Of a stretch of 64,000 bases of DNA, positions 8,272-34,661 are shown piece after piece (the first letter of the stretch is position 1; every line of letters begins with the position of its first letter). The notes under the pieces were generated by a model, which searched no databases, was not told the DNA's origin, and was given only the letters and a program-made list of their open reading frames with translations. Source of the DNA: Verrucomicrobiota bacterium (GTDB lineage: Bacteria > Verrucomicrobiota > Verrucomicrobiia > Chthoniobacterales > Terrimicrobiaceae); NCBI GenBank assembly GCA_026398275.1, contig JAPLTF010000098.1, positions 6,174-70,173 of the forward strand. The letters are read 5' to 3'. Made by a program: the position numbers and the translations under genes.

Positions 8272-9303
8272 CTAAGTTCCCCGATCGATGAAGGTCGCCG
8301 CCAAGCGGACGGTTTTCGAGGGCGGAGCGCTCGATCCCGCTTTCCGTTCGATCTGCGCGAAGAGCATCTCGGAGGCGGTTCGCCCGATGAGATCCGCGTG
8401 CTGATCGAAGGTGGAGACGGGAATGAAATATCCGCCCCCTATGGCAACTGCTCCGAATCCGATGATCGAGACATCTTCGGGGATGCGGCGGCCCAGCTTC
8501 AAGAGCGCTCTGCGGCATCCGAGCGCCAGATTGTCGTTGACCGCGAAGATGCCGTCCACTTTTGCGCCCTTTTCAGTCAGGTATTCCAGGATCGCATCTT
8601 CGTTGGGACTGAAAGTCGGGAACTCCAGGGTGTCCACCGTGACCGGCCTGTTGGCCGACGCGACGGCGTCGCGGAATCCCTTCGCCCGGTCGCGGCTGGG
8701 GCTGAACCGGTCCCCGCCGGTGACCAGCAGAAAGTTCTTCAGGCCGCGGGCGAGAAGGCGCGTCCCCGCCTCCTCTCCGCCGACAACATCATCGGTGCCA
8801 ACAAAATCGCAGGCAAATTTCGGGACGTGCCGGTCAATGACCACGATCGGCACGTTGCGCTGGACGATTTCCTCAAAATAGAGGGCGGTGGCCTCGTCGT
8901 TGGCCGGGCGAAGAATGATGCCATCAACTCGCAATTCGATCAGGCGATGGAGGAGCTTTCGCTCCTCCTCGATGGCGCGTTCCCCCCAGTCGCCGTGAAC
9001 CATCGACAGCAGCAGACCCGCATCCTGTTCGGAGAGATGATCGTGGATTCCTTCGAGCACCCCGCTGTAGAAACCCAGTCCGGCGGGCATCACCACGCCG
9101 ATCAGGCCGGTGCGGCCCGTTTGCATCCCCCGCACCAGCCGGTTGGGGCGATACTGAATTCGCTCGGCAACCTCGCGAATACTCCGGGCCGTCTCAGCCG
9201 CCACCTTGCCCGTGCCGTTCATGAACCTGGAGACGGTCATGAGCGAGACACCCACCTCCCGTGCGATCACCTTCATGCTGGCGCGTTCTGTTGTGTTAGC
9301 CAT
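8272..9303 (-). CDS. LacI-family transcriptional regulator
   Basis: 343-aa ORF with an N-terminal HTH (MKVIAREVGVSLMTVSRFMNGTGKVAAETARSIREVAERIQYRPNRLVRGMQTGRTGLIGVVMP) and a periplasmic-binding-fold effector domain. It is a paralog of the ORF at 51619..52650. Confidence 0.9.
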   Translation of the reverse strand: MANTTERASMKVIAREVGVSLMTVSRFMNGTGKVAAETARSIREVAERIQYRPNRLVRGMQTGRTGLIGVVMPAGLGFYSGVLEGIHDHLSEQDAGLLLSMVHGDWGERAIEEERKLLHRLIELRVDGIILRPANDEATALYFEEIVQRNVPIVVIDRHVPKFACDFVGTDDVVGGEEAGTRLLARGLKNFLLVTGGDRFSPSRDRAKGFRDAVASANRPVTVDTLEFPTFSPNEDAILEYLTEKGAKVDGIFAVNDNLALGCRRALLKLGRRIPEDVSIIGFGAVAIGGGYFIPVSTFDQHADLIGRTASEMLFAQIERKAGSSAPPSKTVRLAATFIDRGT

Positions 9304-9503: not shown

Positions 9504-10388
9504 TCAGCGGTTCTCGCAGCCCGCTATGGCTTTGCGTCCCAACTGCTCGACGATCGCGGTCAGGTAGCTCCAATACGGCTCCTTCTCGATCGTCTCGCGC
9601 ACCGTGGCGGCAGGGAGGAATCGGCGCATTTCCTTCATGAAGTCCCCTCGTACAGGCTCGGTTTTCAGCGCGGCGATGCGTTCTTGAAGCGATGCGCAGA
9701 ACTCGGCTTCCTCGCGTTGGTGGTCGCGGATTTTTATAGGGACGAGCTTGGCGGGCAGTTCGATGCCTTGCTGGGTGAGCCAGGCGATGTCCCAGAGATC
9801 GCGGTTTTTGAAGCGGTTCTCGCGAAAGGCGAGCGCGATGACCTTGTCGGCCAGGATCTCCTCGCGGCTCTGCGCTTGAAGAATGAGTCCCGAGGTGCCG
9901 AGGTCGATGCCGTAGAGATTTCGCAGCATCATCGGGCGCGGGTCGTGACTGGGAATGGCGCAGATGTCGAGATGGATGCGCTGCGCGGGCAGGTGCCTTT
10001 TGCCGGAGCGTGTCTCGATGGTCAGCTTCCAGGTGGAGACTTGGCCGCCGGTTTTGACGGGCTCGCTGACGCTGACAGGCAGGCCGTAGCGGGCTTGCAG
10101 TCGATCCACGAGCACGCGGGCGAGTTCGGCCAGCTCACTCCGCTGGAAGTCACTGCCGCCAGTGAAGTCGAGGTCCTCGCTGAGTCGTGAGGAGCCGTAG
10201 CAGGCCCGCAGACAGGTCCCACCAATGAACGTCAGTCCGGTGAGCAAGCCGGCCCCGCTCATCTCGCGGAGGATGTCGTGATGCAGCAGTTCCTTTTCCA
10301 CCACGGGGCGCAGTGAGGTGAGTTCTGCCCGGGAACGCAGCGCCTCGTTCACCACTTGGTCAAACAAGCTCACGCGCCACCTCCTCAT
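9504..10388 (-). CDS. abiEii: AbiEii/AbiGii-family nucleotidyltransferase toxin (DUF1814), type IV TA / abortive infection
   Basis: 294-aa ORF with the family motifs FIGGTCLRACYGS, SEDLDFTG and ILADKVIALAFRENRFKNRDLWDIAWL. It overlaps the upstream antitoxin ORF by up to 29 nt. Internal GTG/TTG starts would shorten that overlap. Confidence 0.85.
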   Translation of the reverse strand: MRRWRVSLFDQVVNEALRSRAELTSLRPVVEKELLHHDILREMSGAGLLTGLTFIGGTCLRACYGSSRLSEDLDFTGGSDFQRSELAELARVLVDRLQARYGLPVSVSEPVKTGGQVSTWKLTIETRSGKRHLPAQRIHLDICAIPSHDPRPMMLRNLYGIDLGTSGLILQAQSREEILADKVIALAFRENRFKNRDLWDIAWLTQQGIELPAKLVPIKIRDHQREEAEFCASLQERIAALKTEPVRGDFMKEMRRFLPAATVRETIEKEPYWSYLTAIVEQLGRKAIAGCENR

Positions 10389-13924: not shown

Positions 13925-14599
13925 TTATGGCACAGTGAGCACCTGAAGGGCATTCAGTTGCAGTTCTTTGTCAATTGCAATCAGTGGGCGGAATGAGAAT
14001 GCCGTGTCACCGGGAGCGGGCGTAAACCGAGCGGTCACAACCAGGAACTGACCATCGGGGTAGGCGAATGCATATTCAGGCGAGTCTTGGCCGGCGATGT
14101 TGTCCGAGTATCCGTTGATCGCGACCATGCGTCCTTCGGCGTCTACCCGGGTGTCCGCAAGGACAAATTGCACCAAATATTCCTGCCCCACCGTGAAACC
14201 GCTGAGAACAAGCGTGCAGTCGATGTCAACCCCCTGTATTCTGCACCAGCTGCCTGTATTGAGAATTCCAGACCTGTCCTCCGAGTAGTAATTGCCGTAA
14301 TTACTAGCATAGGCCTCACCCGAAGTGGAAAATTTCATCGAGATCGGTGAGGCGGTGTTAGCTGACTGGCCCAGATCCGCATTCGTCGTGAGCCAGTTGA
14401 CTCCCCCGAAGGATGTCATCGGCGCTCCGCTGCCGAAGTTCATCGCCTTGACGGAGGTGGTGCCCTCCGGTCTGACCCAGCTCGTGTCGGTGTCGCTGGT
14501 TGCAGTGTAAAACGAGTAGGTGATTTTCGTCTCTGCAGGGGCCGACCCGACAAAGGCAAGAGCCGCGAAGGCGGCGAGATGTATGTGCTTTAGTTTCAT
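13925..14599 (-). CDS. secreted protein of unknown function (225 aa from the ATG at 14599)
   Basis: Signal peptide MKLKHIHLAAFAALAFVGSAPA, followed by a beta-rich sequence. It ends ...QLNALQVLTVP-stop. GC content is lower than in its neighbours. The ORF track's longer 247-aa version adds an implausible N-terminal extension. Confidence 0.6.
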   Translation of the reverse strand: MKLKHIHLAAFAALAFVGSAPAETKITYSFYTATSDTDTSWVRPEGTTSVKAMNFGSGAPMTSFGGVNWLTTNADLGQSANTASPISMKFSTSGEAYASNYGNYYSEDRSGILNTGSWCRIQGVDIDCTLVLSGFTVGQEYLVQFVLADTRVDAEGRMVAINGYSDNIAGQDSPEYAFAYPDGQFLVVTARFTPAPGDTAFSFRPLIAIDKELQLNALQVLTVP

Positions 14600-14794
14600 A
14601 TTTGGTGTTATATTTTCATTGTTGCAGTCATCGGCTAAATCTATCGCCCAGGGTGTCGTTGTCAACAATTGGGAGCTGTGTCGGTTTCACGAGTCCTTGC
14701 AGTTTGACCATGTTTATTCATTCCCTTTGGGTCTGATACCCCGAGGCTTGCTTCGGCTTTGTTTCGTGGCTCTCTGTCTTCAAATTCTTAAATG

Positions 14795-14825: not shown

Positions 14826-15009
14826 GCTATTGACTCGGCTCGGCAACCCCAAGAAAGTTAGGTCTGACATATGGCGGATAAAAGCAGCTGCCACACTCCA
14901 TGAAGCCAGACACCATTCTTGCTGCCGGCAGCTTGTCTTGCCTTGCGCGAACCAGCAAAGAATATGGCGTGAAGCCTGATTAATGTCTGGTGAAGAAGGG
15001 CGGAATTAA

Positions 15010-16968
15010 ATGAAGAACATTATTCTTACTGGCCTGCTGGCTGGCACCATCCTCACCGACGCCACTGCACAGTGGTCGCACAAGGAAGGCGACCCAATGC
15101 CGCATCCGGCAGGCATCGTTGTGCAGCCGTTCACGCATGCCGAATGGGATGCGAGCAACTTTGCTCCCGCGAAAGACCTGCAATGGTATCGCGATGCCAG
15201 GTATGGGATGTTCATCCATTTCGGGCTGTCCACCCACAATAATGCGGATCTGTCGTGGGGCGTCTGCCAAACCCGAAAGGCGCCCGACGCCGGCAGTGGC
15301 CCGGTGCCGGATGCGGTCTGGCAGGGTTGGCCTAAGGACTTTCAGTTCGAGAAGTTTGATGCCAGGGAATGGGTCGAGATCGCCAGGGCCGGCGGCTTCA
15401 AATATATCGTCGCCATCGCCAAGCATCACGACGGGTTTCACCTCTGGGACACCGCCTTCTCGGACTTCAAGGTGACCAATACACCCTTCAAGCGCGACTA
15501 CCTCAGGGAACTCGCCGACGCCTGCCATGCCGCCGCCATGCCTTTCGGCATCTATTACTCCCAGCGTGATTGGTATCACCCCGATTACATGCCGGTTGAT
15601 CCCGCGAAGGCGAACATCAGCGGCAATCACTGGACGCTCAAACCCGGCGAGACCAGTCCGATGGGTGAACGCCACAAGAAATACAACGAGTACCAATTCA
15701 ACGTAGTCCGGGAGCTCTGCACCAAGTACGGCAAGGTGGATATCTTCTGGTGGGACGCCGCGTGGTGGGGAGGAATGTTCACGGCCGAGATCTGGGATGG
15801 CGAGAAACTCACCCGTATGGTCCGCGAGCTCCAGCCCGGCATCCTGATGAACAACCGCTGTTCCGTGCCCGGCGACTTCGACACGCCCGAACAACGCCTC
15901 GGCTTCTATCAAGACTGGCGTCCGTGGGAATCCTGCGTCTGCCTGACCCATAGCTGGAGTTACAGCGGCTCCCCGCCCAAATCCCGCGATGAGATCATCC
16001 GCATGCTCATCAGCAACGCCTGTTGCGACGGCAATCTTCTGCTTTCCTGGGGACCGCAGTGGGACGGCGAATTCGCCGCCACCGAGAAAAGCCGGCTCCT
16101 CGAAGTGGGCGCGTGGCTTAAGGACAATGGCCGCGCCATCTACGGCACACGCGGTGGTCCGTGGAAGTGGGCGGAGTGGGGCGGTTCAACCCGGCGTGAC
16201 AAAACCGTCTGGCTCCATGTCTTCAAAGGAGACACGCTCAGCCTTCCTGCGCTGCCTGAACGCACCGTGCTCTCCGCGCAATTGTTGACCGGCGAGAAGG
16301 TGGATTTCAAACAAGAGGGGGCCATGCTTACGGTCACCGTGCCGAAAGGCAACCCGTTCGCCATCGTTGAGCTTACCTTCGACAAATCCGTGGACACCCT
16401 GCCGGCTGTATCGCCCGGCGATGACCTTTCCATCTTCAACGATGCGGTGACGTACGGCAAAGTCGTTTCGCGACAAGCCACGGTGAAAGCCAGTTCCATT
16501 TTCATGGGAACACTTCAAGCGCTCGTCGCGGAAACACCCCGGTCCGGTTCAGGATGCGCGCACCGGTCACCGAAATGTCCCGGCCCAGATCAATCTCGAA
16601 CCAGGGATTCGCTTCCTCGGCGGTATGAAGTGCAAAATCGCCGGGACAGGATCGCGCGGCGACTTTGCGCATCTCGCTGTCATCGGATGGCAAGACCTGG
16701 GCGGAGGTCTGGAAGGCCGAACGGGGCGAACCGCAGTGGGAGATTCCCGTCACCGAATATAAAGCGGGCGCCCACGTGCCAGGCCGCACAGCACGCTATC
16801 TCCGGCTCGAACTCAACCCCGCAAAGGCTGAATACCTTCATCTTCGCCAAGTGGAAGTCTGGGGAAAGGAGCCGTGAACAAAATTACGGCGTTCCTTGGA
16901 CGATCACAGAGTCGCAGGCTGAGGTTCTGCGAAAGCCCGGGACAATCATTCGACAGGCTGTTGGGTAA
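15010..16968 (+). CDS. alpha-L-fucosidase, GH29, secreted; C-terminal F5/8-type-C (discoidin) domain disrupted
   Basis: Signal peptide MKNIILTGLLAGTILTDATAQ. GH29 motifs are present: YGMFIHFGLSTH, KYIVAIAKHHDGFHLWDTAFSDFKVTNTPFKRDY, GIYYSQRDWYHPDY, DIFWWDAAWW. Sensible protein sequence ends at ...ATVKASS (about 16497). The remaining ~155 codons of the as-is ORF are Arg/Pro/Ser-rich nonsense. The intact ancestral gene probably ended at 16877. Confidence 0.85.
   Translation: MKNIILTGLLAGTILTDATAQWSHKEGDPMPHPAGIVVQPFTHAEWDASNFAPAKDLQWYRDARYGMFIHFGLSTHNNADLSWGVCQTRKAPDAGSGPVPDAVWQGWPKDFQFEKFDAREWVEIARAGGFKYIVAIAKHHDGFHLWDTAFSDFKVTNTPFKRDYLRELADACHAAAMPFGIYYSQRDWYHPDYMPVDPAKANISGNHWTLKPGETSPMGERHKKYNEYQFNVVRELCTKYGKVDIFWWDAAWWGGMFTAEIWDGEKLTRMVRELQPGILMNNRCSVPGDFDTPEQRLGFYQDWRPWESCVCLTHSWSYSGSPPKSRDEIIRMLISNACCDGNLLLSWGPQWDGEFAATEKSRLLEVGAWLKDNGRAIYGTRGGPWKWAEWGGSTRRDKTVWLHVFKGDTLSLPALPERTVLSAQLLTGEKVDFKQEGAMLTVTVPKGNPFAIVELTFDKSVDTLPAVSPGDDLSIFNDAVTYGKVVSRQATVKASSIFMGTLQALVAETPRSGSGCAHRSPKCPGPDQSRTRDSLPRRYEVQNRRDRIARRLCASRCHRMARPGRRSGRPNGANRSGRFPSPNIKRAPTCQAAQHAISGSNSTPQRLNTFIFAKWKSGERSREQNYGVPWTITESQAEVLRKPGTIIRQAVG
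16508..16667. other. ~160-bp locally inverted segment encoding the first half of the F5/8-type-C domain of the GH29 gene
   Basis: The minus-strand translation of this segment reads KVAARSCPGDFALHTAEEANPWFEIDLGRDISVTGARILNRTGVFPRRALEVF, the discoidin core WFEIDLG...ILNR. The plus-strand frame 3 from 16668 continues RISLSSDGKTWAEVWKAERGEPQWEIPVT...ARYLRLELNPAKAEYLHLRQVEVWGKEP-stop (16877). Joined, the two give a canonical domain, ...RALEVF|RISLSSDGKTW.... The boundaries are ambiguous by 1 nt because of C/G microhomology. Confidence 0.75.
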
Positions 16969-19753: not shown

Positions 19754-22700
19754 GTGAAAATGAATCGAATCTGCGGAGTTATTGTTGCCTGGGCAGTTCT
19801 TGCCTCCTCTTTGTCCACATTTGCGCAGGATCCTGACCTGCGGCAGGAGGTCTGTCTGAATGGGACGTGGGAGTTGCATGTGGAGGGGATCTCCCAGGCG
19901 GCAACTGTGCGCGTGCCGGGTTCTTATGCCGGACAGGATCAAATGGTCGGCAAAGAGCATTCCGATGTTTGGTCGTATCCCCCGGAGTGGCGTAACAAGG
20001 CGGTTACCTATCAGCGCTCATTCGACGTTCCGGAAAGCCTGAAAGGCCGACGTGTGTTGATCCACTTTGGTGGGGTGAGGCACAAGGTGCGTGTCGAAGT
20101 GAATGGCGTGGAAGCCGGCACATGGTGGGATTCGTATGTTCCGTTTGAGTTCGACATCACTGGCTTGGTCAAGCCGGGCAAAAACGAGTTGAAGGTGCAT
20201 GTGGGCAAAGAGGATAGCGTGCTCTTCGAGGATTGGAACGCCTGGAGGCGCGGTATTTACCGCGATGTCTTCCTGAAGATCGTGCCGGATGTGCACGTTA
20301 CTCCGGATCTTTTTGTACGCACCTCGGTGGCACGCGGGGAAATCGCCTGCGATATCCCAGTGCGTAACGACAGCGACGGCGCCCGCAAGGTGCGGCTGCG
20401 CTTCAACGTTACGGATGCGGACGGACGGACGGTCAAAGCCTGGCAGGCCCCTGCCGTTACCCTTGAGCCCGGCGCAGTGACGGTTGTCAAAAGCGTCGAA
20501 CGCTGGACGGATCCCCACCTATGGTCGCTGACTGATCCGTATCTGCAGCATCTCAACACGGAGGTCGTGGACGAGTCCGGGGTCGTGTTGGATCGTCACC
20601 GCCTGCGCTTTGGATTCCGCGAGATCACCACTGACAAGAATCGGCTTTTACTCAACGGGAACGAACTGTTCCTGCGCGGCAATGGCGATCATCCGATTGG
20701 TGATCTTGAGGGGGGCAGGGAGTTTTCCATGGCTAAAATCCGCATGCTTAAGGAAAACGGCATGGAGATCATGCGGATGCACAATCTTCCCCGGCACGCC
20801 GAGCTATACGATGCGGGCGATGAGCTGGGCTTCCTGTTCATTTCCGAGGCGTCTCATCACTTCAGACTGCCGGAACCGGAGATCGGGAAGGCGCACATGA
20901 GCAATCTCATCCGGTGGCTGCGAAACCGTCCGTCGGTGGCGCTCTGGAGTGTCTCCAACGAGTTGCACTGGCGCAAGATCGAGGAACCGAAATACCTGAT
21001 CGATCTCTGCCACGAGCTGGATCCGACACGTCCCGCCTATGCGAGCGATTTTTCCCCGTGGAGCCTGCATGGCGATGTGATTAGCAAGCACTACTCCGCC
21101 GCCACCGTCTGGGAAGAATGGTTCAAGTATGGGCCTGATAAGCCGATGATATGGGACGAATTTGCCGAAACCTGGCAACCACAACGCCCCTTCAGAACCG
21201 GTCCCGCCGGTTACGAGGTGACCTCGCAGGATGTGGGTGCCGGGACTTGGGGGGAGGGCTGGATGCAGGTGCGAGGCGACCTGAAACATTGCGCCGACGG
21301 CAAGGAGCACGACGGTCGCTTTTACCGGGTTACCGCCTGGGTCCCCTGGGAGTTCGGCTATAATTTCTTTCGCTTTCAACCGTTCAACAATTTTAATCAA
21401 ATGCCGGTCAAGCATGCCGCAATCGAGGGCGAGCGGGGAATCAAGATTGAATACGTCAATCCGTGCGCCAACACGGTGAACATCTGGGATCCGACACTTC
21501 CCTTTTATCAACCCAACCCGGGCTTCTACTGTTTTGAGGACTACCTGCGCCATGTCCGCTTCCCGGATGATCCGAAGGACCGCACCTTCTTCAGTGGTGC
21601 CACGATCGAGCAACGGGGCCGCTTGTTCTACGAAGACCACCGGCCGACGGACAAGGTGGAATTTCGCGTCGAGACAACCGACGGAAATGTTCTAACGACA
21701 AGCGGACGCGCGATCAAGCATGCGCCGGGAGCATATGTGCCTGAGTTCGTTTCGACATGGACGTTGCCAAAGGTGGACGTTCTCACGCCAGTGCGCCTGG
21801 TGCGGCAGTTCTCCTTCAATGGGGTGGTCGGATACCGTCAGGTGCGTGACGTGAAAATCTTCCCGCAGTTTGATGTTGAAGCGGCTGGCAAAACGATGGC
21901 GGTTGTTCCCTCATTGCAAAAGGCATTCAAGGGGCCTGGAGTCGATGAAGAGTCGGCCAAGGTCATTGTCACGGATTCGCTCACGCCGGAACTGAAGGAA
22001 AAGGTGAGGAAAGGAAAGCGGGTGCTGGTTTTGAATCCCCTGACGGACAAGAGCAGGAAGGTGACGCTCAGCCGGTTTTATTTACCACTGACCAGCAAGC
22101 CGGATTTGAATCTTGGACCCGAAATCTCGGTCATGAAGCCTTCGGAGACCAAGGTCAGTTTATTCGGAAAAGGCGGAACGATGGTTCAAATCAGATCTCA
22201 ATTCAATGACATGGCCATTCTCAATTCCGAACCCGGAGCCTGGGTGAAGTTTGAGTTTCCTCACGTTGTAGGTCTCGACAGCAAAAGCAGTCTGAAGTTT
22301 ACCTATAGTTTGTGGATGCCGCCGGATCCGACATACGAAGAAGGCTGGAAAAAGGTTGGCGGAGCTTCGCATTTTCAGAAGTCTGCGCGATTGTTGGTGC
22401 AGCAGGAAAATGGTCAGTGGTTGGGCAGCCAGGAAGATGCCATTCGGTTCGAAGCAAAGGGTCCTGGGGAGATGGGCGGGGAAGCCGAAGCTTGCATAGG
22501 CCGGATGACCTGGCACGAGGTGACGCTTGAGCCCGGGAAACCGTTGGTCATTGGCAAGCCGGTGACCGCGCCGGTCTTTGAAAATGTCTCCAGCTTCGGG
22601 TTTGAAATCACCCGCTCGCAAAAGAACGTGGCGCTTTGTCTGAAGGAATTTCAGATTGAAGCCAAGAAGCTGGCCTCAGCAGTGGTGCCGTCGGACGGGC

Positions 22701-24439
22701 CGCAACACCCATTGTTGACGGGCTTGGGGGCTGAGGATTTCTCCTTTTGGCGCGGGGGGAACGCCTGCTCCAAACTGGCTTTACCGCAGGCTACCGGGTT
22801 CAGGCGGATTTTGTTTGGCGATAGTGATGGTTCGGATGCCGTTCTTCAGGAGTTTGCCATTGGCCAGGGTCTGGTGCTGGAATGTTCGTTGAATGTGCTC
22901 GACACGCTGGGGCAGGAGCCCGTTGCCGGGCACATGCTCCAACGGATGCTGGAGTATCTGGGCCAATACCGGGCTGTTGATGAGGCTCCTCCGGTTGCTG
23001 TGATTGGCAGCGATTCGACCGTCCAGTACTGGCAAGGCCTTGGGCTCTCGGCGGACAAGGTCAGCGATCCCAAATCCCTGAAAGGACGCAATCTGGTGAT
23101 TGTTGAGTCGGCGGCCATCCCTGATGGCGGGGATCTGGAGGCATGGCGTGCGGCCTTGCAAGAGGTCGTCACTACGGGAGGGACGGTCTTTTGGACGTCG
23201 GTTGATGAAGCGCAACTGGCCAAGGTTCGCAAGCTTGCCGGATTGGCCACGCTTCGGCTGACAGAGCCGTTTTTCGGGAAGCGCTCTAATTGCATCAAGG
23301 CTCCGGTCAGCTGGATGCGTGAAGGCACACCGCAGCAGTGGGTTGACTATTACGAGGGCGTGCTCGTGCCTTATCCCTTCGAACGTAACTTCAGCCCGTT
23401 GCTTGCCGGCATCGCCAATCAGGACTTGCAGTGGGACGGGGTAACGATGTTGGACAAGGGCATTGAGATTGAAGGCATGAACCCTGTGACTGCCTCGGGC
23501 AAGGAGCGAATTCTCATCAGCACCTGGCATATCGGTTCGGAATCCGGCAACGGCCTCTACGACGAGTGGGTCAACGGAGTGCGCGATCTCAGGCAGAATG
23601 CCTGGTTTGTCAACCGGGATCCGGTGCTGCTGCAGGTCCAAGAAGGCAAGGGCTCGAACATTTTTTGTCAGCTCGCGCTGAGCGCCGGAGGACATAAAGC
23701 CGATCGGTTGATGACCCAGCTGTTTTCCAATATGGGTGCCCCATTCGCGGGTAGCCGCCCTCTGCGAAGCGACTTGTTCGACCCGGCACCCAGCCGCGAA
23801 CAGGCGGCGCGCTTCACAAAGTACGACACCCAGATTTCTCCGGCGGTCCGCCAATACTACGGCAAGCCGGATCCCATGCCCGATTATCTGGCCCCAACTC
23901 AAATCGACGAGGCAACGAGTGTTCAACTGCCTGTTCTTGGTCTTGTGGGCGATCCGCTTGCCGTGTCACTTGCCGCCCCCCTCGCCAAAGCGCTCGAAGG
24001 GATACAACGCCTTGACACACCGGTATCACTCTCCAGTTCCAAGGATGCTGCTGGCCCTATTCCAGATCGGAGATGGGATCGTGTGGTGCTCTCGATGGGC
24101 GCCGCCGATTTGGAGGATGCCTCTGTCACGCCCGCCCGATTCGCAGCGGATCTGGCCAAAGTCCATGAGTTTCTCCAACTGCGGGCCAGGCAGATTTTTT
24201 GGCTGCCGATTGGTCCCCAGGTTAATCCGGAGCGTCAGGCCCGGGCCGATGCCTTGAATGAAGCTGCCGCCAAGTATTTCGAAAAGCGCAACGTTTATCA
24301 GGTTCCCTTTGTTTATAATAATGCTTCAGAAGTCTTGCGAAGCCATCTGTCCGCGCCTGGGCGAGGTTACAGCGAGGAGGAGTCCCGGGCACTTGCAAAG
24401 GGACTCGCGGAAGCCGTGCAGTCATTTGGCGGACAGTAA
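19754..24439 (+). CDS. secreted multidomain GH2-family glycosidase (1561 aa) with long C-terminal extension
   Basis: Signal peptide (MNRICGVIVAWAVLASSLSTFAQ from the ATG at 19760). The GH2 layout is present: sugar-binding domain; FGFREITTDKNRLLLNGNELFLRGNGDH; acid/base region WSVSNELHW; MIWDEFAETW. About 900 further residues are of unassigned function. The last ~150 aa (RVVLSMGAADLED...IFWLPIGPQ) look SGNH-like. Confidence 0.85.
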   Translation: MKMNRICGVIVAWAVLASSLSTFAQDPDLRQEVCLNGTWELHVEGISQAATVRVPGSYAGQDQMVGKEHSDVWSYPPEWRNKAVTYQRSFDVPESLKGRRVLIHFGGVRHKVRVEVNGVEAGTWWDSYVPFEFDITGLVKPGKNELKVHVGKEDSVLFEDWNAWRRGIYRDVFLKIVPDVHVTPDLFVRTSVARGEIACDIPVRNDSDGARKVRLRFNVTDADGRTVKAWQAPAVTLEPGAVTVVKSVERWTDPHLWSLTDPYLQHLNTEVVDESGVVLDRHRLRFGFREITTDKNRLLLNGNELFLRGNGDHPIGDLEGGREFSMAKIRMLKENGMEIMRMHNLPRHAELYDAGDELGFLFISEASHHFRLPEPEIGKAHMSNLIRWLRNRPSVALWSVSNELHWRKIEEPKYLIDLCHELDPTRPAYASDFSPWSLHGDVISKHYSAATVWEEWFKYGPDKPMIWDEFAETWQPQRPFRTGPAGYEVTSQDVGAGTWGEGWMQVRGDLKHCADGKEHDGRFYRVTAWVPWEFGYNFFRFQPFNNFNQMPVKHAAIEGERGIKIEYVNPCANTVNIWDPTLPFYQPNPGFYCFEDYLRHVRFPDDPKDRTFFSGATIEQRGRLFYEDHRPTDKVEFRVETTDGNVLTTSGRAIKHAPGAYVPEFVSTWTLPKVDVLTPVRLVRQFSFNGVVGYRQVRDVKIFPQFDVEAAGKTMAVVPSLQKAFKGPGVDEESAKVIVTDSLTPELKEKVRKGKRVLVLNPLTDKSRKVTLSRFYLPLTSKPDLNLGPEISVMKPSETKVSLFGKGGTMVQIRSQFNDMAILNSEPGAWVKFEFPHVVGLDSKSSLKFTYSLWMPPDPTYEEGWKKVGGASHFQKSARLLVQQENGQWLGSQEDAIRFEAKGPGEMGGEAEACIGRMTWHEVTLEPGKPLVIGKPVTAPVFENVSSFGFEITRSQKNVALCLKEFQIEAKKLASAVVPSDGPQHPLLTGLGAEDFSFWRGGNACSKLALPQATGFRRILFGDSDGSDAVLQEFAIGQGLVLECSLNVLDTLGQEPVAGHMLQRMLEYLGQYRAVDEAPPVAVIGSDSTVQYWQGLGLSADKVSDPKSLKGRNLVIVESAAIPDGGDLEAWRAALQEVVTTGGTVFWTSVDEAQLAKVRKLAGLATLRLTEPFFGKRSNCIKAPVSWMREGTPQQWVDYYEGVLVPYPFERNFSPLLAGIANQDLQWDGVTMLDKGIEIEGMNPVTASGKERILISTWHIGSESGNGLYDEWVNGVRDLRQNAWFVNRDPVLLQVQEGKGSNIFCQLALSAGGHKADRLMTQLFSNMGAPFAGSRPLRSDLFDPAPSREQAARFTKYDTQISPAVRQYYGKPDPMPDYLAPTQIDEATSVQLPVLGLVGDPLAVSLAAPLAKALEGIQRLDTPVSLSSSKDAAGPIPDRRWDRVVLSMGAADLEDASVTPARFAADLAKVHEFLQLRARQIFWLPIGPQVNPERQARADALNEAAAKYFEKRNVYQVPFVYNNASEVLRSHLSAPGRGYSEEESRALAKGLAEAVQSFGGQ

Positions 24440-24477: not shown

Positions 24478-27210
24478 ATGTTGGAGAAGATCATGATAAA
24501 TAAAAAGGGGTTCAGCATCGCGTGTGCTGCCTTTGTTTGTTTTGGGTTGTATACAAAAGCATCAGGGGAAATAAGTTTTGATACTCTTGACAAATACAAC
24601 GTCCGTTGGAATGCGCTCGGAACATCGTCGGCTGATTCGATGCCGCTTGGTAACGGCGACGTGGGGCTGAACGTCTGGACCGAGCAAAACGGCGATCTGG
24701 TCTTTTACATCGGCAAGAACGATGCATGGAGTGATCAAGTCGAAGGAGCGGTGGGACTGATCAAGGTGGGTCGGGTCCGGGTGTCACTCAATCCAAATCC
24801 ATTCGCCGGAGGCCAGGACGTTTCCCAAGAGCTGGTGCTGCGCGACGGTTCGATTGTTCTCCGGGCAAATGACTCCAATAAACCCTCGCAGTTGCGGATC
24901 TGGGTCGATGCGAACCGGCCTGTGATCCATGTCGAAGCCGAATGTGCGAAGCCCGTCAAGATGCGGGTGGCCATGGAATCCTGGCGCAAGGTGAAAACGG
25001 ATGCCCTCAATACGGACACGATTCTCAATGACCAGACAAACCGAATCGTCTGGTATTATCGGAACCAGAATCGGGACAATCCACATCTGCTGAATCGCAC
25101 CATCGGCGCGGGCGTGAAGGGGGAGGGCCTTGTTTCTATCGATGCTGAAACACTTGAGTCGCCGCTCCAAACAAAACATCACGTTGCGATTCATACGCTG
25201 ACGTCGCAGCCTCCGACGACCGAGGAATGGCTGGCGCAACTGGATCGGCAAATCGCCACGACACTCTCGGTTCCCATCGACCAGGCATGGCGGGAGCATC
25301 AGAAATGGTGGGAGCAGTTTTGGAACCGGAGCTGGATTTTTGCGACCACGGTTCGATCGGAGAAAGAGCCAAACATCAGCGGCATCATTCCCTCAAACAA
25401 ATTAAACTTCAGAGTTGGGATTGATTCCAGCGGTGGAAATCAATTTGTAGGAAAACTGGGGCGGGCCTCTCTGCTGAAACGAGCCTTAAGCGAAGAGGAA
25501 ATCCGGGTTTTGGCAAGCAACCGGGAGAGTATGGATGCGGAGGATAAAGACATCCTTTATAGTGCGATCCCTGAACTGTATACTGAACTTGCCGACTCTG
25601 CGGAATGGACGGATTTGCCGGAACTGACGGCCGAAATGTGGGTCAATCCAACCTTTGGCTCTGGCGACATGAGGATTCTGGACAAGGTCATACCGGGAGA
25701 TAACAACGGGGTCCTTCTCGATACAAATCCGGAAGACAGCCTGCGACTGATCATCGGTGGCAACCTTTACTCAGCTCCCCATTGTCTGAAATCCGGCCAA
25801 TGGCATCATGTCGCCGTCGTGGTGGATTCAGGAAAGGGCCGAATCGAGTTGTATCTCGACGGGAAGCGGATTGCCGGCAAACCCGGGACCGATGAAGTCG
25901 ACGAAGCTTCTGCCGTAACGGAGGGCTACCTGCTGCAGCGCTTCAAACAGGCCTGTTCCAGCCGCGGTGAATTTCCAATCAAGTTCAACGGTTCGATTTT
26001 TACTGTAGATGGTCCCAATCCATGGGCACCGAAGGGGACAGATCCAAACGACAAGGGAAAGTGGATCACTGCGGATTTCCGTTGCTGGGGCGGCATGTAT
26101 TGGTTCCAGAACACCCGGGCGATGTATTGGCCCATGCTGGCCTCGGGCGATTTCGACTTGATGCTTCCGCTATTCCGTATGTATCGCGCACAGCTTGACG
26201 GGAATCTCAAGCAGGTGCGGGAATTCTACGGGCACGGCGGGGCTTATGTTCGGGAGACAGCCCCCTTCTGGGGTGGCTTGGTGAAAATTACGGCGGAGGA
26301 TCCCGGCGACTATACCCGCCATTACTACACGCCCATTCTCGAGCTGAGCGCCATGATGCTGGACTATTATGCTTACACGCGGGACGAGGAGTTTGCCCGC
26401 CAAACGCTATTGCCCATGGCCGAGGCAGGCGTGACGTTTTATGCGGAGCATTTTCCCCGCGAGCCGAACGGGACTTTGCGCATCGAACCCTCCAATTCCA
26501 TAGAAACCTACTGGAAAGTCCGTGATCCGTTGCCAGACATTGCCGGCCTCACGCATGTGCTGCAGCGGTTGATCGCGTTACCGCCCTCACTGGCAACAGA
26601 GGAACAGCAAAAACGGTGGCAGACGCTGCTGAGCCAACTCCCGGCGGTTCCCATTGGAATCCGGAATGGAGCGAAGCAAATATTACCGTTTTCCGAAGGC
26701 CAGGAATCAAAAGTGTCAAATTCGGAAAATCCTGAGCTCTATGCCATCTATCCGTTTCGGCTCTACGGTATTGGCAAGCCCGAGCTCGAGGTTGGACAGG
26801 CCTCGTTCGCTGCCAGACGGGTAAAATCTTCGGGATGCTGGTCTCAGGATGCCGTTCAGGCCGCACTCTTGGGCGATGTGAAAAGCGCCAGAAAAGATGT
26901 CTTCAAGCATCTCACGAACAAGGATCCCAGGTCGCGGTTTCCGGCTATCTGGGTGGGGGGCTTTGATTACGTTCCGGACGAGGACAACGGTGGCAATGGC
27001 CTAAACGCTCTGCAGCTTATGTTGATGCAATGTGACGGGGACGCGATCCATCTTTTGCCTGCCTGGCCGGATGATTGGAACGCGGACTTCAAGCTGCACG
27101 CTCCCATGCAGACCACGGTCGAGGGGCGGGTGGAAGGCGGAAAGATCGTAGACCTGAAAGTCACGCCGGAGTCTCGGAAAAAAGACGTCAAAATCGGCAG
27201 GCGAAAGTAA
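24478..27210 (+). CDS. secreted DUF5703-type (GH95-like architecture) glycoside-hydrolase-like protein with inserted LamG/concanavalin-like module
   Basis: N-terminus after the signal peptide: YNVRWNALGTSSADSMPLGNGDVGLNVWTEQNGDLVFYIGKNDAWSD (DUF5703_N signature). There is an (alpha/alpha)6-like middle region. The C-terminus LLPAWPDDWNADFKLHAPMQTTVEGRVEGGKIV resembles GH95/GH65-type C-terminal beta-sandwiches. The LamG-like segment lies at about 25378-25890. Confidence 0.75.
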   Translation: MLEKIMINKKGFSIACAAFVCFGLYTKASGEISFDTLDKYNVRWNALGTSSADSMPLGNGDVGLNVWTEQNGDLVFYIGKNDAWSDQVEGAVGLIKVGRVRVSLNPNPFAGGQDVSQELVLRDGSIVLRANDSNKPSQLRIWVDANRPVIHVEAECAKPVKMRVAMESWRKVKTDALNTDTILNDQTNRIVWYYRNQNRDNPHLLNRTIGAGVKGEGLVSIDAETLESPLQTKHHVAIHTLTSQPPTTEEWLAQLDRQIATTLSVPIDQAWREHQKWWEQFWNRSWIFATTVRSEKEPNISGIIPSNKLNFRVGIDSSGGNQFVGKLGRASLLKRALSEEEIRVLASNRESMDAEDKDILYSAIPELYTELADSAEWTDLPELTAEMWVNPTFGSGDMRILDKVIPGDNNGVLLDTNPEDSLRLIIGGNLYSAPHCLKSGQWHHVAVVVDSGKGRIELYLDGKRIAGKPGTDEVDEASAVTEGYLLQRFKQACSSRGEFPIKFNGSIFTVDGPNPWAPKGTDPNDKGKWITADFRCWGGMYWFQNTRAMYWPMLASGDFDLMLPLFRMYRAQLDGNLKQVREFYGHGGAYVRETAPFWGGLVKITAEDPGDYTRHYYTPILELSAMMLDYYAYTRDEEFARQTLLPMAEAGVTFYAEHFPREPNGTLRIEPSNSIETYWKVRDPLPDIAGLTHVLQRLIALPPSLATEEQQKRWQTLLSQLPAVPIGIRNGAKQILPFSEGQESKVSNSENPELYAIYPFRLYGIGKPELEVGQASFAARRVKSSGCWSQDAVQAALLGDVKSARKDVFKHLTNKDPRSRFPAIWVGGFDYVPDEDNGGNGLNALQLMLMQCDGDAIHLLPAWPDDWNADFKLHAPMQTTVEGRVEGGKIVDLKVTPESRKKDVKIGRRK

Positions 27211-27418: not shown

Positions 27419-30400
27419 GTGATTGTGAAATCCACGGCACTCCTGCTCCTTCAACTTTTGGTTTTCGCCGTTCTTTGCCAGGCCATGCCGCTCGACAAGC
27501 TCAGTGGGGTGGAGGACGCGGATGTTTCGCTCGATGGCACATGGCACTTCGAGATCCCCGCGCCGGAAGGCTTCTGGAACGAGCTGACGGAGCCGAAGGG
27601 CTGGAAGACCATGCCGGTGCCGGGGGATGTTTTCCGCGAGGGCCATCCGATCAAGGAGGACGAGCCGATGGCCTACAAGCGCAAGGTCTCCATCCCGGCG
27701 GATTTCGCGGGTCAAAAAATCCGCCTCCGCTTCGAGGGCGCACATGAGTTCACGCGCGTTTGGGTGAATGGAAAATTCATCACTGAGCACCAAGGCGGTT
27801 GGACGCCCTGGGATTGCGACATCACCCCGGTGGTGACGCCCGGGCAGGACGCCTGGATCGCGGTGGAAATCACCGATCTTAAAAAAGAAATTGCCTTCAA
27901 CGGAAAACGCCTCCGCGTGATCGGCGGCTTGGTGCGAAGCGTCTGGTTACAGGCGCGACCGAAGGCGTTATTCGAATTCCCGATCGTTTCGTCGCCGTTC
28001 TCCGAAGACCGCAAAACCGCTGCCCTCACCGTCACGGGACAGGTGGAAACGCCTGACCCACAGGCGACCGCTTCGTTCCGGCTGTTCGATCCGGAAGGCA
28101 AGGAAGTTCCGCTCGCCATGCCCGCTTGCAAGCTCGACCAGCCGCAGGTCACTTGGAAGGCGGAGGTCGCCTCCCCGCAAACCTGGGATGCCGAGCACCC
28201 GCGCTTGTATCGCCTGGAGGTCACGAGCAAGGCGCCGGGACAGGCCACGGCGGTTTATTCAAGGCGCATCGGTTTTCGCGACATCCGCTTCGATGGCCAA
28301 AAGAACCTGCTCATCAATGGCAAGGTGGTGAAACTCCGCGGTGCCAACCGCCACATCGTCAACCCGCTCAAGGGCATCGTCCCCGATGCTGCGGTGGACG
28401 CCCTTGATGTGGAACGTTTCAAGGAGGCGAATATGAACTTCGTCCGCACCTCGCACTACCCGCCGGGCACCGGATTCGTCGATGGATGCGACGAGCAAGG
28501 CCTCTATGTGACCCTCGAGTCGGCGGTGCTGGATTGCGGGAAAGCCAACAGGCCCTCGGTCGGCATGAACGACGATCCGCAATTCGAGCCCCTCTTTGTC
28601 AATCAACAGCGGGAGGTGCTTCTCAACTACGGCAGCCACCCTTCCATCATTCTCTGGTCGATCTGCAACGAGAGCGTCTTCGGCCGCAACTTCACGGCCG
28701 CCGCCGATGTCGCCCGCACGCTCGATGCCTCGCGCCCGATCACCGCAAGCTACCAGGTCAAAGACGACCCGGATCACAAAAGCTACGATGTGAAAAGCTG
28801 GCACTACCCGGGCTGGGACCAGAATTATGAGATGAAAGGAATGCCCGTCATCTACGACGAGTGGATGCATGTGCTCGGGCATTCCGCCGAAATGTGGTTC
28901 CATGACCCGAACGCGCGCGATTACTGGGGACGTAGTCTGGACAAGGCGTGGACCGCGCTCTTCTCCTCGAACGGAAGCGTCGGCGCCGCGATCTGGCAAT
29001 ATGCCGATGACATGACAATCTGCCCCGACCCCACCGCCCAATCCTCGAGCGGAGCGGTGCGCCGCTTCGTAAAAAACCAGGCGAAACTCCCCGTTTCTGA
29101 AAAGCTTCCCAACATTTATGGCACCGCCCGCTGGGGCATCGTCGACGAATGGCGCCGTCCGAAACCCGAATTCTGGAATGTGAAAAAAGCCTACAGCCCG
29201 GTCCGTTTGATGAAAACGCAAGTGCCGGAGTTCGAGCCCGGCAAGCCGATTTCCTTGACGGTCCAAAACCGCTTCGACCACACCTCGCTCGACCAAGTCA
29301 CGCTCCGCGTCAGCTACAATGGCAAGACGCGGGAAATACCGTGCCCGCCGATCGCGCCCCACCAGCAGGGCGCCATTGAACTTCCCGCCGCGGATTGGAA
29401 AGCCGGCACGGAAATCGCCGTATCATTCCTGGACCGCTCGAAGAAACTCATCGACGACGAACGCATCACGCTCGGCATCCCCGCAAAACCCGAAGCCCCC
29501 GCGCTTGCCGGAGTGCCGCAAGTGGTCGAAGCCGATGGCCGGATCACCATTCAGGGCACGGAATTTGGCATCGTGATCGACCGCGCCACCGGCCTCATCC
29601 AGTGCATCCAGCATGGCACGGCGAACGTTCCCCTCACCGGTCCGGTTCCGCACATTTTCAAGCTCGAGGAATTCCAAGAAAACGGCATCAACCCGGACAT
29701 CGGCCAGGTGCCCTCGATTATCGGCAAAACCACCACCTACGACAGTCCCTTGCTCGGAGCCTGGAAATTGAAAGACCTCCGCATCGAGAAAAAAGCCAGC
29801 GCCATCGGGGTCTATGTCACCGGGCAGTTCGACTCGTTCGATGTCGATTACATCTACACCATCGCCGCCAACGGCCGCTTGGACATCGACTATCAATTCA
29901 AAAACCTCCCGCCGCTCGATACGACGGGCAAAATCCCGAATTCCGGCGAGCCGTTGAATCTCGAGGTCGGCATCAAATTCCAGACCGGCGACCAGTTCGA
30001 CCGCCTCCACTGGGACAAAAAAACCTACTGGTCCTCGTATCCGGAAGGCCACCTTGGCAGCGGCAAGGGCAGCATCGAGCTTTTCAGCACCAACAAGCCG
30101 GTCTGGGCACAAAAGCCCACGCAACCCTGGAGCAAGGATGTTTGGGATTTTTACCTGATGGGCTGGCCGGCGCCCGAGGGCAAACTCCTCACCTACGAAG
30201 CCAGCGCCGCCAAGCAGGCCATCCGCACCTACACATTGGACGACAAAGAGGCGAAGCTCGCCCTCACCATCCACGGCGACGGCAAAGCCACCACCGCCCG
30301 CTACGGCCAGTTCACGGACAATAACTATTACCTCTACCTGCTCGACACCCTCGACTACCACCTCCGCTGGGGTAACTACTCCGCCAAAAACCGCCCCGCG

Positions 30401-30454
30401 CCCGGGCATCAAGGCGTCGCGAGGTTCTCACTCGCAAATTTGGACCAAAAGTGA
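27419..30454 (+). CDS. secreted GH2 beta-galactosidase (LacZ-like, with C-terminal small-chain/domain 5)
   Basis: GTG start followed by signal peptide IVKSTALLLLQLLVFAVLCQA. GH2 motifs: IGFRDIRFDGQKNLLINGKVVKLRGANRH; NFVRTSHYPP; acid/base WSICNES; nucleophile region VIYDEWMHV. The length of 1011 aa is typical of LacZ-type enzymes. Confidence 0.9.
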   Translation: MIVKSTALLLLQLLVFAVLCQAMPLDKLSGVEDADVSLDGTWHFEIPAPEGFWNELTEPKGWKTMPVPGDVFREGHPIKEDEPMAYKRKVSIPADFAGQKIRLRFEGAHEFTRVWVNGKFITEHQGGWTPWDCDITPVVTPGQDAWIAVEITDLKKEIAFNGKRLRVIGGLVRSVWLQARPKALFEFPIVSSPFSEDRKTAALTVTGQVETPDPQATASFRLFDPEGKEVPLAMPACKLDQPQVTWKAEVASPQTWDAEHPRLYRLEVTSKAPGQATAVYSRRIGFRDIRFDGQKNLLINGKVVKLRGANRHIVNPLKGIVPDAAVDALDVERFKEANMNFVRTSHYPPGTGFVDGCDEQGLYVTLESAVLDCGKANRPSVGMNDDPQFEPLFVNQQREVLLNYGSHPSIILWSICNESVFGRNFTAAADVARTLDASRPITASYQVKDDPDHKSYDVKSWHYPGWDQNYEMKGMPVIYDEWMHVLGHSAEMWFHDPNARDYWGRSLDKAWTALFSSNGSVGAAIWQYADDMTICPDPTAQSSSGAVRRFVKNQAKLPVSEKLPNIYGTARWGIVDEWRRPKPEFWNVKKAYSPVRLMKTQVPEFEPGKPISLTVQNRFDHTSLDQVTLRVSYNGKTREIPCPPIAPHQQGAIELPAADWKAGTEIAVSFLDRSKKLIDDERITLGIPAKPEAPALAGVPQVVEADGRITIQGTEFGIVIDRATGLIQCIQHGTANVPLTGPVPHIFKLEEFQENGINPDIGQVPSIIGKTTTYDSPLLGAWKLKDLRIEKKASAIGVYVTGQFDSFDVDYIYTIAANGRLDIDYQFKNLPPLDTTGKIPNSGEPLNLEVGIKFQTGDQFDRLHWDKKTYWSSYPEGHLGSGKGSIELFSTNKPVWAQKPTQPWSKDVWDFYLMGWPAPEGKLLTYEASAAKQAIRTYTLDDKEAKLALTIHGDGKATTARYGQFTDNNYYLYLLDTLDYHLRWGNYSAKNRPAPGHQGVARFSLANLDQK

Positions 30455-32810: not shown

Positions 32811-34661
32811 ATGCCGAAAGAAGATCTCCAAGCGAAAATGGAGGATTTGTGGGGCAAGGAAATCCAGAAGCGCGACTCGATGGCAGATGCGATCCGCGAA
32901 TGGCAGGACGACGGCTTCGGGATTTTTATGCACTTTTCCCCAAGCACCGCGTTTCAGGGCCGCTACAAGGGCAAGGAATCTGAGAAGGATCTCTGGGCCG
33001 AATGGATGATGGCCCGTGCGGAGATTCCGGTGCCGGAATACGAGCAGCAGCTGCGATCATGGAATCCGGACCGGTTCGACGCCGGAAAATGGGCGGATGT
33101 GGTCGCTGCTTCGGGTTGCCGGTATTTTGTTTTCACTGCCAAGCATCATGACGGTCTCGCCATGTTCAAAAGCGAAGTGAATGGATATAACATCATCGAG
33201 CATACGGCTTTCAAAAAGGGTGATATGTTCGCTCTGCTGACGGAAGAAGTTCGCAAACGCGGCATCAAACCCGGCTTCTATTATTCCCATCATCTGGACT
33301 GGCATGAACCGGGTGGCGCGGGCGGACCGCAAAACAAGACACTTGATGAATACATGGAGGTTTTGGCGCTGCCTCATCTTGAAGAGCTGACGACAAAGTA
33401 TGGCAAACAGCATGTTGCCTGGTTTGACTGCGGACGGCCTGAGGCGCTCGCAAGAAAATGTGAAGCCGTTGTCCACAGAAACCAGCCGAATATCATGGTG
33501 TGCTCCCGGGTGGGCGGTGGACTCGGTGACTTTACCAGCGAAGGGGACTGCCAGGTGCCTCCCATCCGTGTTGATGGACCATGGGAAACCTGCATGACAT
33601 TGACCCAGCACTGGGCCTGGTTCCCGCTGGACCGCGATCATAAACCTGCCGGCGAAGTGATCCGGATGCTCGCCGCCATCCGTTCACGGGGCGGAAACCT
33701 TCTGCTCAATATTGGTCCCGATGTCCGGGGAGAGATCCCTTTGCGGGATCAAACCATCCTCAGGCAGGTGGGAGACTGGCTTAAACGCAACGGTGAATCG
33801 ATATTCGGGGTCCAGGCGACGCCATACGGGGATCTTCCCTGGGGAGTCTGCACTTATCGGGCAGGAACTTTGTATCTGCATGTTTTTAAGCTCCCTTCAT
33901 TGGACACCCTCTTCCTGCCGGGATTGAAATCAACCGCGAAAAGAGCGTGTTTCCTGGCGGATGACAGGAAGCAGACGCTGGATTTCCTGGCAGTACCCGG
34001 CGGAGTGGAAATTGATTTGACGAGCATTGTTGACTTTGCGGAATTCGCAGATGAGGACGACACGGTACTCATGGTCGAATTCGATGGCGAATTGATTGTC
34101 GATCCCCGTCCGGTCCTGGATCATGATCTTGATAACCGCTTCATTCCGGCCCTGGCTGCAGAAAAGAACGGTGTTGATCTGCGGAGTTTTCGGCGTCCGT
34201 ATTTCATCGACCACGGCACCAACGCGTATTGTCCGCATGAGGATTATGCGCATGGATTCAAAAAAGCCGGCGCGGGTCTTGGATGGCAGTTTTCGAATAG
34301 GGATGAGAACTCCTTCTTTGTGAATGTGGAATACGCAAACCTGACAGGGAGACCGGTCAAGGTGAAGTTGTCCGTCGGCGGACACGAACTGAGAGCAGAA
34401 CTGCCTGTCACTGTTCTCAACGAGAGGGATTGGCGCTGGTTCCGGACTGACATCATCGGGCAGGTAAAAGTCTCGGCAGACAATGACCAGAGCATGAGCT
34501 TTGAAGTGACCGAACCCATGAGTGAAGACAGGATGCCATCCTATCTGGCAGACGGCAAACCGGGCACGGAGCATGATGGATTTATGATCAAATCGATCAC
34601 TCTTAAATCGTTGGCTCCTCTCCCGTATCCGTTGAACGGAGAGCTGGCCCGGCAAAACTGA
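32811..34661 (+). CDS. alpha-L-fucosidase, GH29, no signal peptide (predicted cytoplasmic)
   Basis: GH29 motifs: FGIFMHFSPST, RYFVFTAKHHDGLAMFKSEVNGYNI, GFYYSHHLDWHEP, HVAWFDCG. The N-terminus MPKEDLQAKMEDLWGKE is hydrophilic. Confidence 0.9.
   Translation: MPKEDLQAKMEDLWGKEIQKRDSMADAIREWQDDGFGIFMHFSPSTAFQGRYKGKESEKDLWAEWMMARAEIPVPEYEQQLRSWNPDRFDAGKWADVVAASGCRYFVFTAKHHDGLAMFKSEVNGYNIIEHTAFKKGDMFALLTEEVRKRGIKPGFYYSHHLDWHEPGGAGGPQNKTLDEYMEVLALPHLEELTTKYGKQHVAWFDCGRPEALARKCEAVVHRNQPNIMVCSRVGGGLGDFTSEGDCQVPPIRVDGPWETCMTLTQHWAWFPLDRDHKPAGEVIRMLAAIRSRGGNLLLNIGPDVRGEIPLRDQTILRQVGDWLKRNGESIFGVQATPYGDLPWGVCTYRAGTLYLHVFKLPSLDTLFLPGLKSTAKRACFLADDRKQTLDFLAVPGGVEIDLTSIVDFAEFADEDDTVLMVEFDGELIVDPRPVLDHDLDNRFIPALAAEKNGVDLRSFRRPYFIDHGTNAYCPHEDYAHGFKKAGAGLGWQFSNRDENSFFVNVEYANLTGRPVKVKLSVGGHELRAELPVTVLNERDWRWFRTDIIGQVKVSADNDQSMSFEVTEPMSEDRMPSYLADGKPGTEHDGFMIKSITLKSLAPLPYPLNGELARQN

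Follow-up and report, generated by a model that had tools for sequence, protein, structure and literature searches.

Intragenic invertons were defined by Chanin et al. by a pair of inverted repeats that is recognised by a recombinase, together with reads in both orientations (10.1101/2023.03.11.532203). The inverton in thiC has an inverted repeat of 11 nt, and PhaVa depends on repeat pairs that can be detected by einverted (10.1101/2023.03.11.532203). Established non-enzymatic routes to microinversions are two template switches at short inverted repeats in the course of replication or microhomology-mediated break-induced replication (MMBIR) after a break (PMC8755829; PMC8604942); both of these papers cite Lovett 2017 and Löytynoja & Goldman 2017. 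Here, a stretch of 64,000 nt from an uncultured Verrucomicrobiota bacterium (contig JAPLTF010000098.1, positions 6,174 to 70,173; in the following called the window) was analysed, in which a gene for a GH29 alpha-L-fucosidase had been described in an earlier note as having its C-terminal F5/8 type C (discoidin) domain split across both strands.

A block of 103 nt at approximately 16540..16642 is reverse-complemented inside this fucosidase gene and represents a real inversion, each boundary of which is ambiguous by 5 nt. A fixed, recent and non-programmed micro-inversion with base loss can be regarded with good confidence as the best explanation, which supports one of the alternatives listed in the earlier note.

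The fucosidase gene and its inverted block

The open reading frame (ORF) of the fucosidase extends over 15010..16968 on the plus strand and encodes 652 aa. When it was scanned as it stands, Pfam matched GH29 only, with the catalytic domain PF01120 reaching 235.5 bits (curated cutoff 25.2) over aa 49-374. The gene thus belongs to GH29 and its catalytic domain is intact, as the earlier note had stated. An F5/8 type C domain was not matched by Pfam anywhere in the 652-aa ORF. The intact collinear portion of the gene, delimited by PF01120, tblastx to the homologue DNA L005 and conserved columns, covers 15010..16539 on the plus strand (510 codons). It encodes a signal-peptide-like N-terminus, the catalytic domain, a beta-sandwich region and the discoidin domain up to about its 25th residue, and it ends with ...KASSIFMGTLQALVAETP. 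In the sense frame, tblastx gave 86% aa identity to L005 across 15067-16539. Within the catalytic part, only three out of 205 columns with at least 90% conservation deviated from the homologues, all of them conservatively.

From 16540 to 16968, the ORF continues on the plus strand as an out-of-frame tail of 142 Arg-rich residues that overshoots the original stop codon by 91 nt. No Pfam family was matched by the tail when it was taken from 16498 as in the earlier note, i.e. as 156 aa in the present frame including the whole 142-aa stretch. In the protein search, the self-match P0001 aligned to just 80% of the repaired query. The exact product is on public record as MCX6972435.1, 'MAG: alpha-L-fucosidase [Verrucomicrobia bacterium]', MAG standing for metagenome-assembled genome. 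This annotation names an ordinary alpha-L-fucosidase, whose final 142 residues are nonsense and whose carbohydrate-binding module (CBM) is broken. Two long antisense ORFs overlap the gene on the minus strand, namely 16502-16789 with 95 aa and 14980-15951 with 323 aa.

The minus strand of the inverted core (16540..16642, 103 nt) encodes GDFALHTAEEANPWFEIDLGRDISVTGARILNRT, a stretch of 34 aa from the middle of the F5/8 type C domain. The rest of the domain, GQDRAATLRISLSSDGKTW...LHLRQVEVWGKEP, lies on the plus strand in frame 3 at 16644..16877, including the original stop codon at 16875-16877, and is detached from the reading frame of the gene. After flipping, 16540..16642 aligned gap-free and in place to the homologue DNAs L005, L006 and L007. 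The alignment left a gap of 3 nt at one junction and of 13 nt at the other, so that 16 nt are missing compared to the homologues. The same layout of forward, reverse and forward pieces was recovered separately by tblastn and tblastx. With tblastn, aa 1-40 of the corrected domain were located at 16420-16539 in frame +1 with 100% identity; aa 38-75 mapped to the minus strand at 16651-16538, and all that followed was assigned to frame +3. With tblastx, positions 1769-1843 of L005 matched 16609-16535 of the window with 84%, and 80% aa identity to L005 was found across 16641-16868. None of the 20 conserved columns deviated in the frame-3 remainder of the domain.

The observation of the earlier note that a part of the F5/8 type C domain resides on the minus strand was therefore borne out by homologue alignment and tblastn, but the extent that it had assigned to the inverted segment, 16508-16667, was too large. 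Intact homologues read '...KASSxxxGTLQALVAExPAADFAFHT...ILNRTSCGQPGQDRAATLRLSVSSDGKTW...' across the region, and homologue protein and DNA identify 'IFMGTLQALVAETP' (16498-16539) and the frame-3 text 'GQDRAATL' (16644-16667) as collinear plus-strand coding. Since the closest intact homologues carry matching text, 'IFMGTLQALVAETP' up to 16539 and 'GQDRAATLRISLSSDGKTW' from 16644 onwards are true collinear coding. Sensible GH29 coding had been proposed to reach ...ATVKASS (~16497); it does so, but collinear coding continues to 16539. Likewise, the last piece of the domain was correctly placed on the plus strand in frame 3 up to the stop codon, but it begins at 16644 and not at 16668. The right junction that had appeared seamless, with ...RALEVF followed by RISLSS, is not a real junction, as 'KVAARSCP' and 'VFPRRALEVF(P)' are antisense read-through of collinear coding. 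Antisense frames stay open in GC-rich coding DNA, and it was the 95-aa antisense ORF at 16502-16789 that misled the earlier note on the extent of the block. The case thereby shows that antisense read-through in GC-rich DNA can inflate the apparent size of an inverted block.

Several reconstructions of the domain were compared by their Pfam scores. The frame-repaired domain reached 38.5 bits for PF00754 and 40.6 bits for PF22633 (cutoffs 28.2 and 27.8), in comparison to 42.8 and 40.9 bits for the intact homologue P0005. Flipping 16508-16667 and inserting one nucleotide, as the earlier note had proposed, also yielded a domain above the cutoffs, with 31-34 bits in one Pfam scan and with 34.4 bits for PF00754 and 36.3 bits for PF22633 in the present comparison, but the corrected model scores higher. 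The former model was rejected because 16508-16539 and 16644-16667 are collinear in the homologues. Furthermore, it is not one extra nucleotide that is needed at the left junction; compared to the homologues, the gene shows a net loss of 16 nt in the two gaps. A plain flip-back still resulted in a frameshifted product of 652 aa with 17.8 bits, below the domain cutoff. In an exhaustive scan with left ends from 16480-16580 and right ends from 16600-16700, no pure inversion restored a continuous ORF to WGKEP. This failure follows from frame arithmetic: an inversion leaves the length unchanged, and with 16 nt missing (16 = 1 mod 3), frames 1 and 3 cannot be brought together by inverting alone. The F5/8 type C domain is thus reconstituted by the three pieces jointly, and a contiguous domain is not present in the gene as it stands.

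The exact 652-aa product was encountered on Logan contigs of at least four runs (ERR15302196, ERR15302169, ERR15302204 and SRR20698641). Five contigs were read, the four listed ones stemming from these runs. From 14747 onwards, their DNA agrees with the window in every base (100% identity) for 2.9-4.4 kb including both junctions, and each contig crosses the inverted block unbroken. A literature search on the run and protein accessions gave no matches. All four contigs begin exactly at 14747, an intergenic position that precedes the start codon of the fucosidase gene by 263 nt. Within the window, neither a repeated 31-mer nor a repeated 14-mer that would explain a graph break at this position was detected, and no exact record was found for the product of the upstream ORF (13925..14668, minus strand) with either of two plausible starts. 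The shared contig start is probably due to strain-level variation or to a repeat elsewhere in the genome.

The closest intact homologues (P0002-P0010) have a length of 596-634 aa and all combine GH29 with PF00754/PF22633. Their identity to the window protein is 72-82% over the whole length and 76-87% in the catalytic part. As all 51 full-length homologues that were compared are collinear, the inverted state is derived. The comparison loci are the closest homologues and not proven orthologues, and their synteny with the window is not conserved on their short contigs. A collinear allele of this organism was not found among 5.8 billion proteins, where the next-best full-length match was 79-82% identical, and a search with the domain only retrieved nothing above 72% identity. 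An exact 24-mer of the core had no matches in the JGI metagenome contigs and none in the GTDB representative genomes; neither collection thus contains the organism, nor any information on orientation.

Concerning its age, the lesion looks recent. None of the three domain pieces contains a stop codon. In the reconstructed discoidin region, one out of 38 columns with at least 90% conservation among the 51 homologues deviates, and most intact homologues deviate in 0-1 of the 38. The ratio of discoidin to catalytic identity was 0.93 (0.90-0.96) for pairs of the window protein with a homologue and 0.94 (0.85-1.01) for intact pairs. Given this lack of stop codons and of excess divergence, the domain would have been under purifying selection until recently, and the lesion would be young on the scale of the divergence of the gene.

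Relatives of GH29 type without the module are common, and P0060, P0070 and P0080 stop after the beta-sandwich. P0056 (472 aa) lacks its discoidin domain except for the last ~10 residues, owing to a deletion that preserved the frame (...FSDA joined to ALRQVQVYGKE), and only GH29 was matched by Pfam. Here, the same module was lost independently through a different mutation. P0065 (591 aa, from a Kiritimatiellia MAG) and P0087 (365 aa) leave the frame near the conserved 'AIYGTRGGPW' and have the alternative-frame text 'VLGLGRLDAPR' in common. A further lineage of the fucosidase family thus bears a frameshift, be it genuine or due to a sequencing error, at a similar position.

Breakpoints, mechanism and alternatives

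The two breakpoints lie in short inverted microhomology. The sequence at the left breakpoint, CCCGG (16538..16542), contains the palindrome CCGG and is the inverse complement of CCGGG at the right breakpoint (16641..16645), as can be read directly from the window. These 5 bp are the sole inverted identity at the junctions. In an empirical run-length test, an inverted run of 5 occurred at ~0.6% of random 103-nt blocks in the window (P ~0.006). The earlier note had seen no convincing flanking inverted repeats, which holds for long repeats but overlooks this microhomology exactly at the breakpoints.

A repeat search additionally revealed the putative former arm of a hairpin, CCGGTTCAGGATGCGCGC, at 16544..16561, which adjoins the left junction on its inner side. 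When turned back to the ancestral orientation, this arm reads GCGCGCATCCTGAACCGG and would lie just upstream of the 13 lost nucleotides. Its partner arm CCGGGACAGGATCGCGCGG is situated in the right flank at 16641..16659, and both arms would make up an ancestral quasi-palindrome; today, 16544-16561 is a direct quasi-repeat of 16641-16659. The predicted ancestral hairpin GCGCGCATCCTGAACCGG...CCGGGACAGGATCGCGCG would consist of these two arms flanking the 13 lost nucleotides as a loop. A reconstructed ancestral 60-mer, in which the 13 loop nucleotides were borrowed from L005, folds as a DNA hairpin with -18.3 kcal/mol (z = -3.66; none of 200 shuffles was as good). The hairpin is weaker in L005 (z = -2.0) and absent in L006 and L007.

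In sum, an ancestral segment of ~119 nt within the F5/8 type C (CBM32-like) domain at the C-terminus gave way, in the lineage of this MAG, to its inner 103 nt in reverse-complemented form. On balance, a part of the gene is inverted, 16 nt are lost and the coding continues in frame 3 instead of frame 1. A single event covering the inversion and both losses probably produced all of these changes in one step. One likely route is a template switch during replication, in which the nascent strand would jump to the complementary strand and back via the inverted microhomology around CCGG. A microhomology-mediated repair of a break is a second likely route. The hairpin-prone quasi-palindrome, the loop of which matches the 13 nt lost at one end, is a possible trigger. 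A reverse complement at the same locus, microhomology at the breakpoints and an associated quasi-palindrome in the reconstructed ancestor were all found, as expected for a template switch.

Several points weigh against this explanation. The homologues from which the ancestor was deduced share just ~80% identity with the window and lack synteny on their short contigs; for this reason, it is uncertain how the 16 lost nucleotides are divided between the junctions (3 + 13 or 0 + 16) and where exactly the switches took place. The loop of the reconstructed hairpin stems from one of these homologues. A microhomology of 5 bp centred on CCGG in DNA with 58% GC is suggestive and no proof. The MAG may share raw data with one of the Logan runs, and minor un-inverted alleles may exist in the populations below the contig-level view. 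Finally, the inversion and the deletions could be separate events.

This last possibility would imply a clean microinversion, or an inverted end-joining of a double-strand break (e.g. between two CCGG sites), followed by deletions in the dead domain. It is compatible with the gaps of 3 nt and 13 nt at two different places, with the palindromic CCGG at both junctions and with the neutrality of indels once the domain was broken. Still, such a sequence of steps is unlikely. Both gaps are located exactly at the breakpoints, whereas the broken domain has no indels, stop codons or excess substitutions elsewhere. Independent later deletions at precisely these two positions are thus unlikely. Moreover, a single template switch would account for the inversion and the losses together, following the model in PMC8755829.

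An artefact would mean that the true genome is collinear and that the flip was generated by assembly, chimera formation or amplification, for instance as an inverted chimera from multiple displacement amplification (MDA) or as a mis-join. The inversion is small and sits in a metagenome-assembled genome, and chimeras from MDA are typically inverted with intervening deletions. However, the same junctions were assembled independently from the runs named above, which bear two different accession prefixes (ERR and SRR), with full identity over kilobases. The flanking inverted identity is far shorter than any k-mer of an assembler, and because of this the flip could not have arisen in a k-mer-based assembly; the window was also found to lack repeats as long as a k-mer by which an assembler might be misled. 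The protein search, in addition, returned no near-identical collinear allele. An assembly or chimera artefact, which the earlier note had still considered, is therefore effectively excluded for practical purposes and is regarded as very improbable.

A programmed, reversible phase variation would require an invertase that toggles the fucosidase between forms with and without its CBM. In gut Bacteroidota as well as further bacteria, intragenic invertons are known by which proteins are recoded or truncated (10.1101/2023.03.11.532203), and the block has a position resembling a domain boundary with the catalytic domain untouched. In contrast to an inverton, no repeat pair of at least ~10 nt that einverted could detect is present, but just the 5 bp. 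With 16 nt missing, re-inversion does not lead to an alternative functional coding state. A single orientation was seen in the assemblies of at least four runs, the MAG and the databases. A scan of 20 large ORFs, comprising the larger ones up to ~10 kb away on either side and ten of those beyond 27.4 kb, gave no match to a recombinase family; several of the ORFs had no Pfam match at all, the scan was confined to the window and an invertase could be encoded elsewhere. The earlier note had judged a recombinase-driven switch to be unsupported. We agree with this, given the loss of 16 nt, the lack of an intact domain in either orientation and the one orientation on record, and consider such a switch highly improbable. 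For the same reasons, on/off or domain-shuffling events, which the note had also listed, are not supported. Flipping at low frequency without any recombinase via the 5-bp CCGG-centred microhomology, with both orientations present in the population, is less likely still than the adaptive knock-out discussed below.

A gene conversion patch from a paralogous discoidin domain in opposite orientation is barely conceivable: another GH29 with an F5/8 type C domain (61318-63243) and many glycosidases are present in the window, but a second copy of the core is not (best DNA match elsewhere 15 nt, best tblastn match 24-27% identity), and the flipped core is as close to the homologues as its flanks (84% compared to 80-86%).

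Consequence and glycosidase setting

In the gene product, the GH29 catalytic part and the beta-sandwich would be intact, with 142 nonsense residues taking the place of the carbohydrate-binding module. The enzyme probably kept its hydrolytic ability but lost the substrate targeting that depends on the CBM; alternatively, it may be destabilised. Losing the module would be tolerated, since three further GH29 genes and two of GH95 type are present in the locus and module-less relatives occur naturally. It is rather doubtful that the micro-inversion was an adaptive, hairpin-triggered knock-out of the CBM which spread with one strain across several sampled communities, as the identical sequence in at least four runs could suggest. 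If true, this would be a CBM loss caught in the act, which remodels a fucosidase through template switching.

The surroundings of the gene comprise a dense island of glycoside hydrolases at ~19700-63300. In total, Pfam assigned four GH29 and two GH95-type genes to the window. Besides the broken fucosidase gene, GH29 genes are located at 32811-34661, at 57295-58638 and, with an intact F5/8 type C domain, at 61318-63243. One GH95-type gene carries DUF5703 and a laminin-G domain (24478-27210) and the other one is situated at 42836-45217. Furthermore, Pfam identified GH2 genes (19754-24439, 27419-30454 and 34685-37111), a GH120+CBM6 beta-helix protein (30503-32785) and a PATR-repeat protein (52819-55980). 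The island looks like a locus for the degradation of fucosylated or sulfated glycans. The window also encodes a GDSL esterase and a LacI-type regulator (8272-9303, minus strand). The latter adjoins a nucleotidyltransferase toxin of the AbiEii family (type IV toxin-antitoxin / abortive infection; 9504-10388, minus strand), which was matched by PF08843 with 100 bits.

Comparison with known systems

With regard to architecture and catalytic domain, the window gene matches its homologues with GH29 and a C-terminal F5/8 type C (CBM32-like) domain at 72-87% aa identity. Module loss recurs in this family by clean truncation or deletion (P0056, P0060, P0070 and P0080). The window gene differs from these module-less relatives in that an inversion and a frameshift left all coding pieces recognisable and added a nonsense tail of 142 aa.

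It shares with the intragenic invertons (10.1101/2023.03.11.532203) that the inversion is wholly intragenic and that the C-terminal product is changed with the N-terminal domain intact. Unlike them, it has no recognisable pair of inverted repeats, was seen in a single orientation and is functionally irreversible through the loss of 16 nt, and no invertase was identified among the 20 large ORFs scanned in the window. No new regulatory or recombination system is thus revealed by the locus.

The inversion also resembles microinversions by template switching or MMBIR, a group to which the quasi-palindrome template switching in bacteria (Lovett) and the short template switches of Löytynoja & Goldman belong. 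As in those, a short segment was exchanged for its exact reverse complement with breakpoints in short inverted microhomology, a quasi-palindrome capable of forming a hairpin is associated, a recombinase is unnecessary, and an inversion with the loss of a few bases is possible in one event. Human-chimpanzee microinversions (PMC8755829) measure 17-33 nt and the inversions of spacers between inverted repeats in coding DNA of yeast (PMC8604942) concern spacers of a few nt, compared to 103 nt in the window. The cases in both studies involve perfect or near-perfect inverted repeats or arms of more than 9 bp, whereas only 5 bp are found here. Moreover, the inversion in the window affects coding DNA of a bacterium, and its effect is clearly disruptive instead of neutral or recoding. 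It is a clean natural microinversion of ~100 bp in a bacterium, the ancestry, breakpoints (within 5 nt) and plausible hairpin trigger of which are legible from the sequence, and it can be used as a worked case for mutagenesis by template switching or MMBIR in bacteria as well as in gene annotation. Altogether, the case belongs to a known class of mutations, template-switch or MMBIR microinversions with base loss, for which it is unusually long and, considering that it stems from an uncultured bacterium, unusually well resolved.

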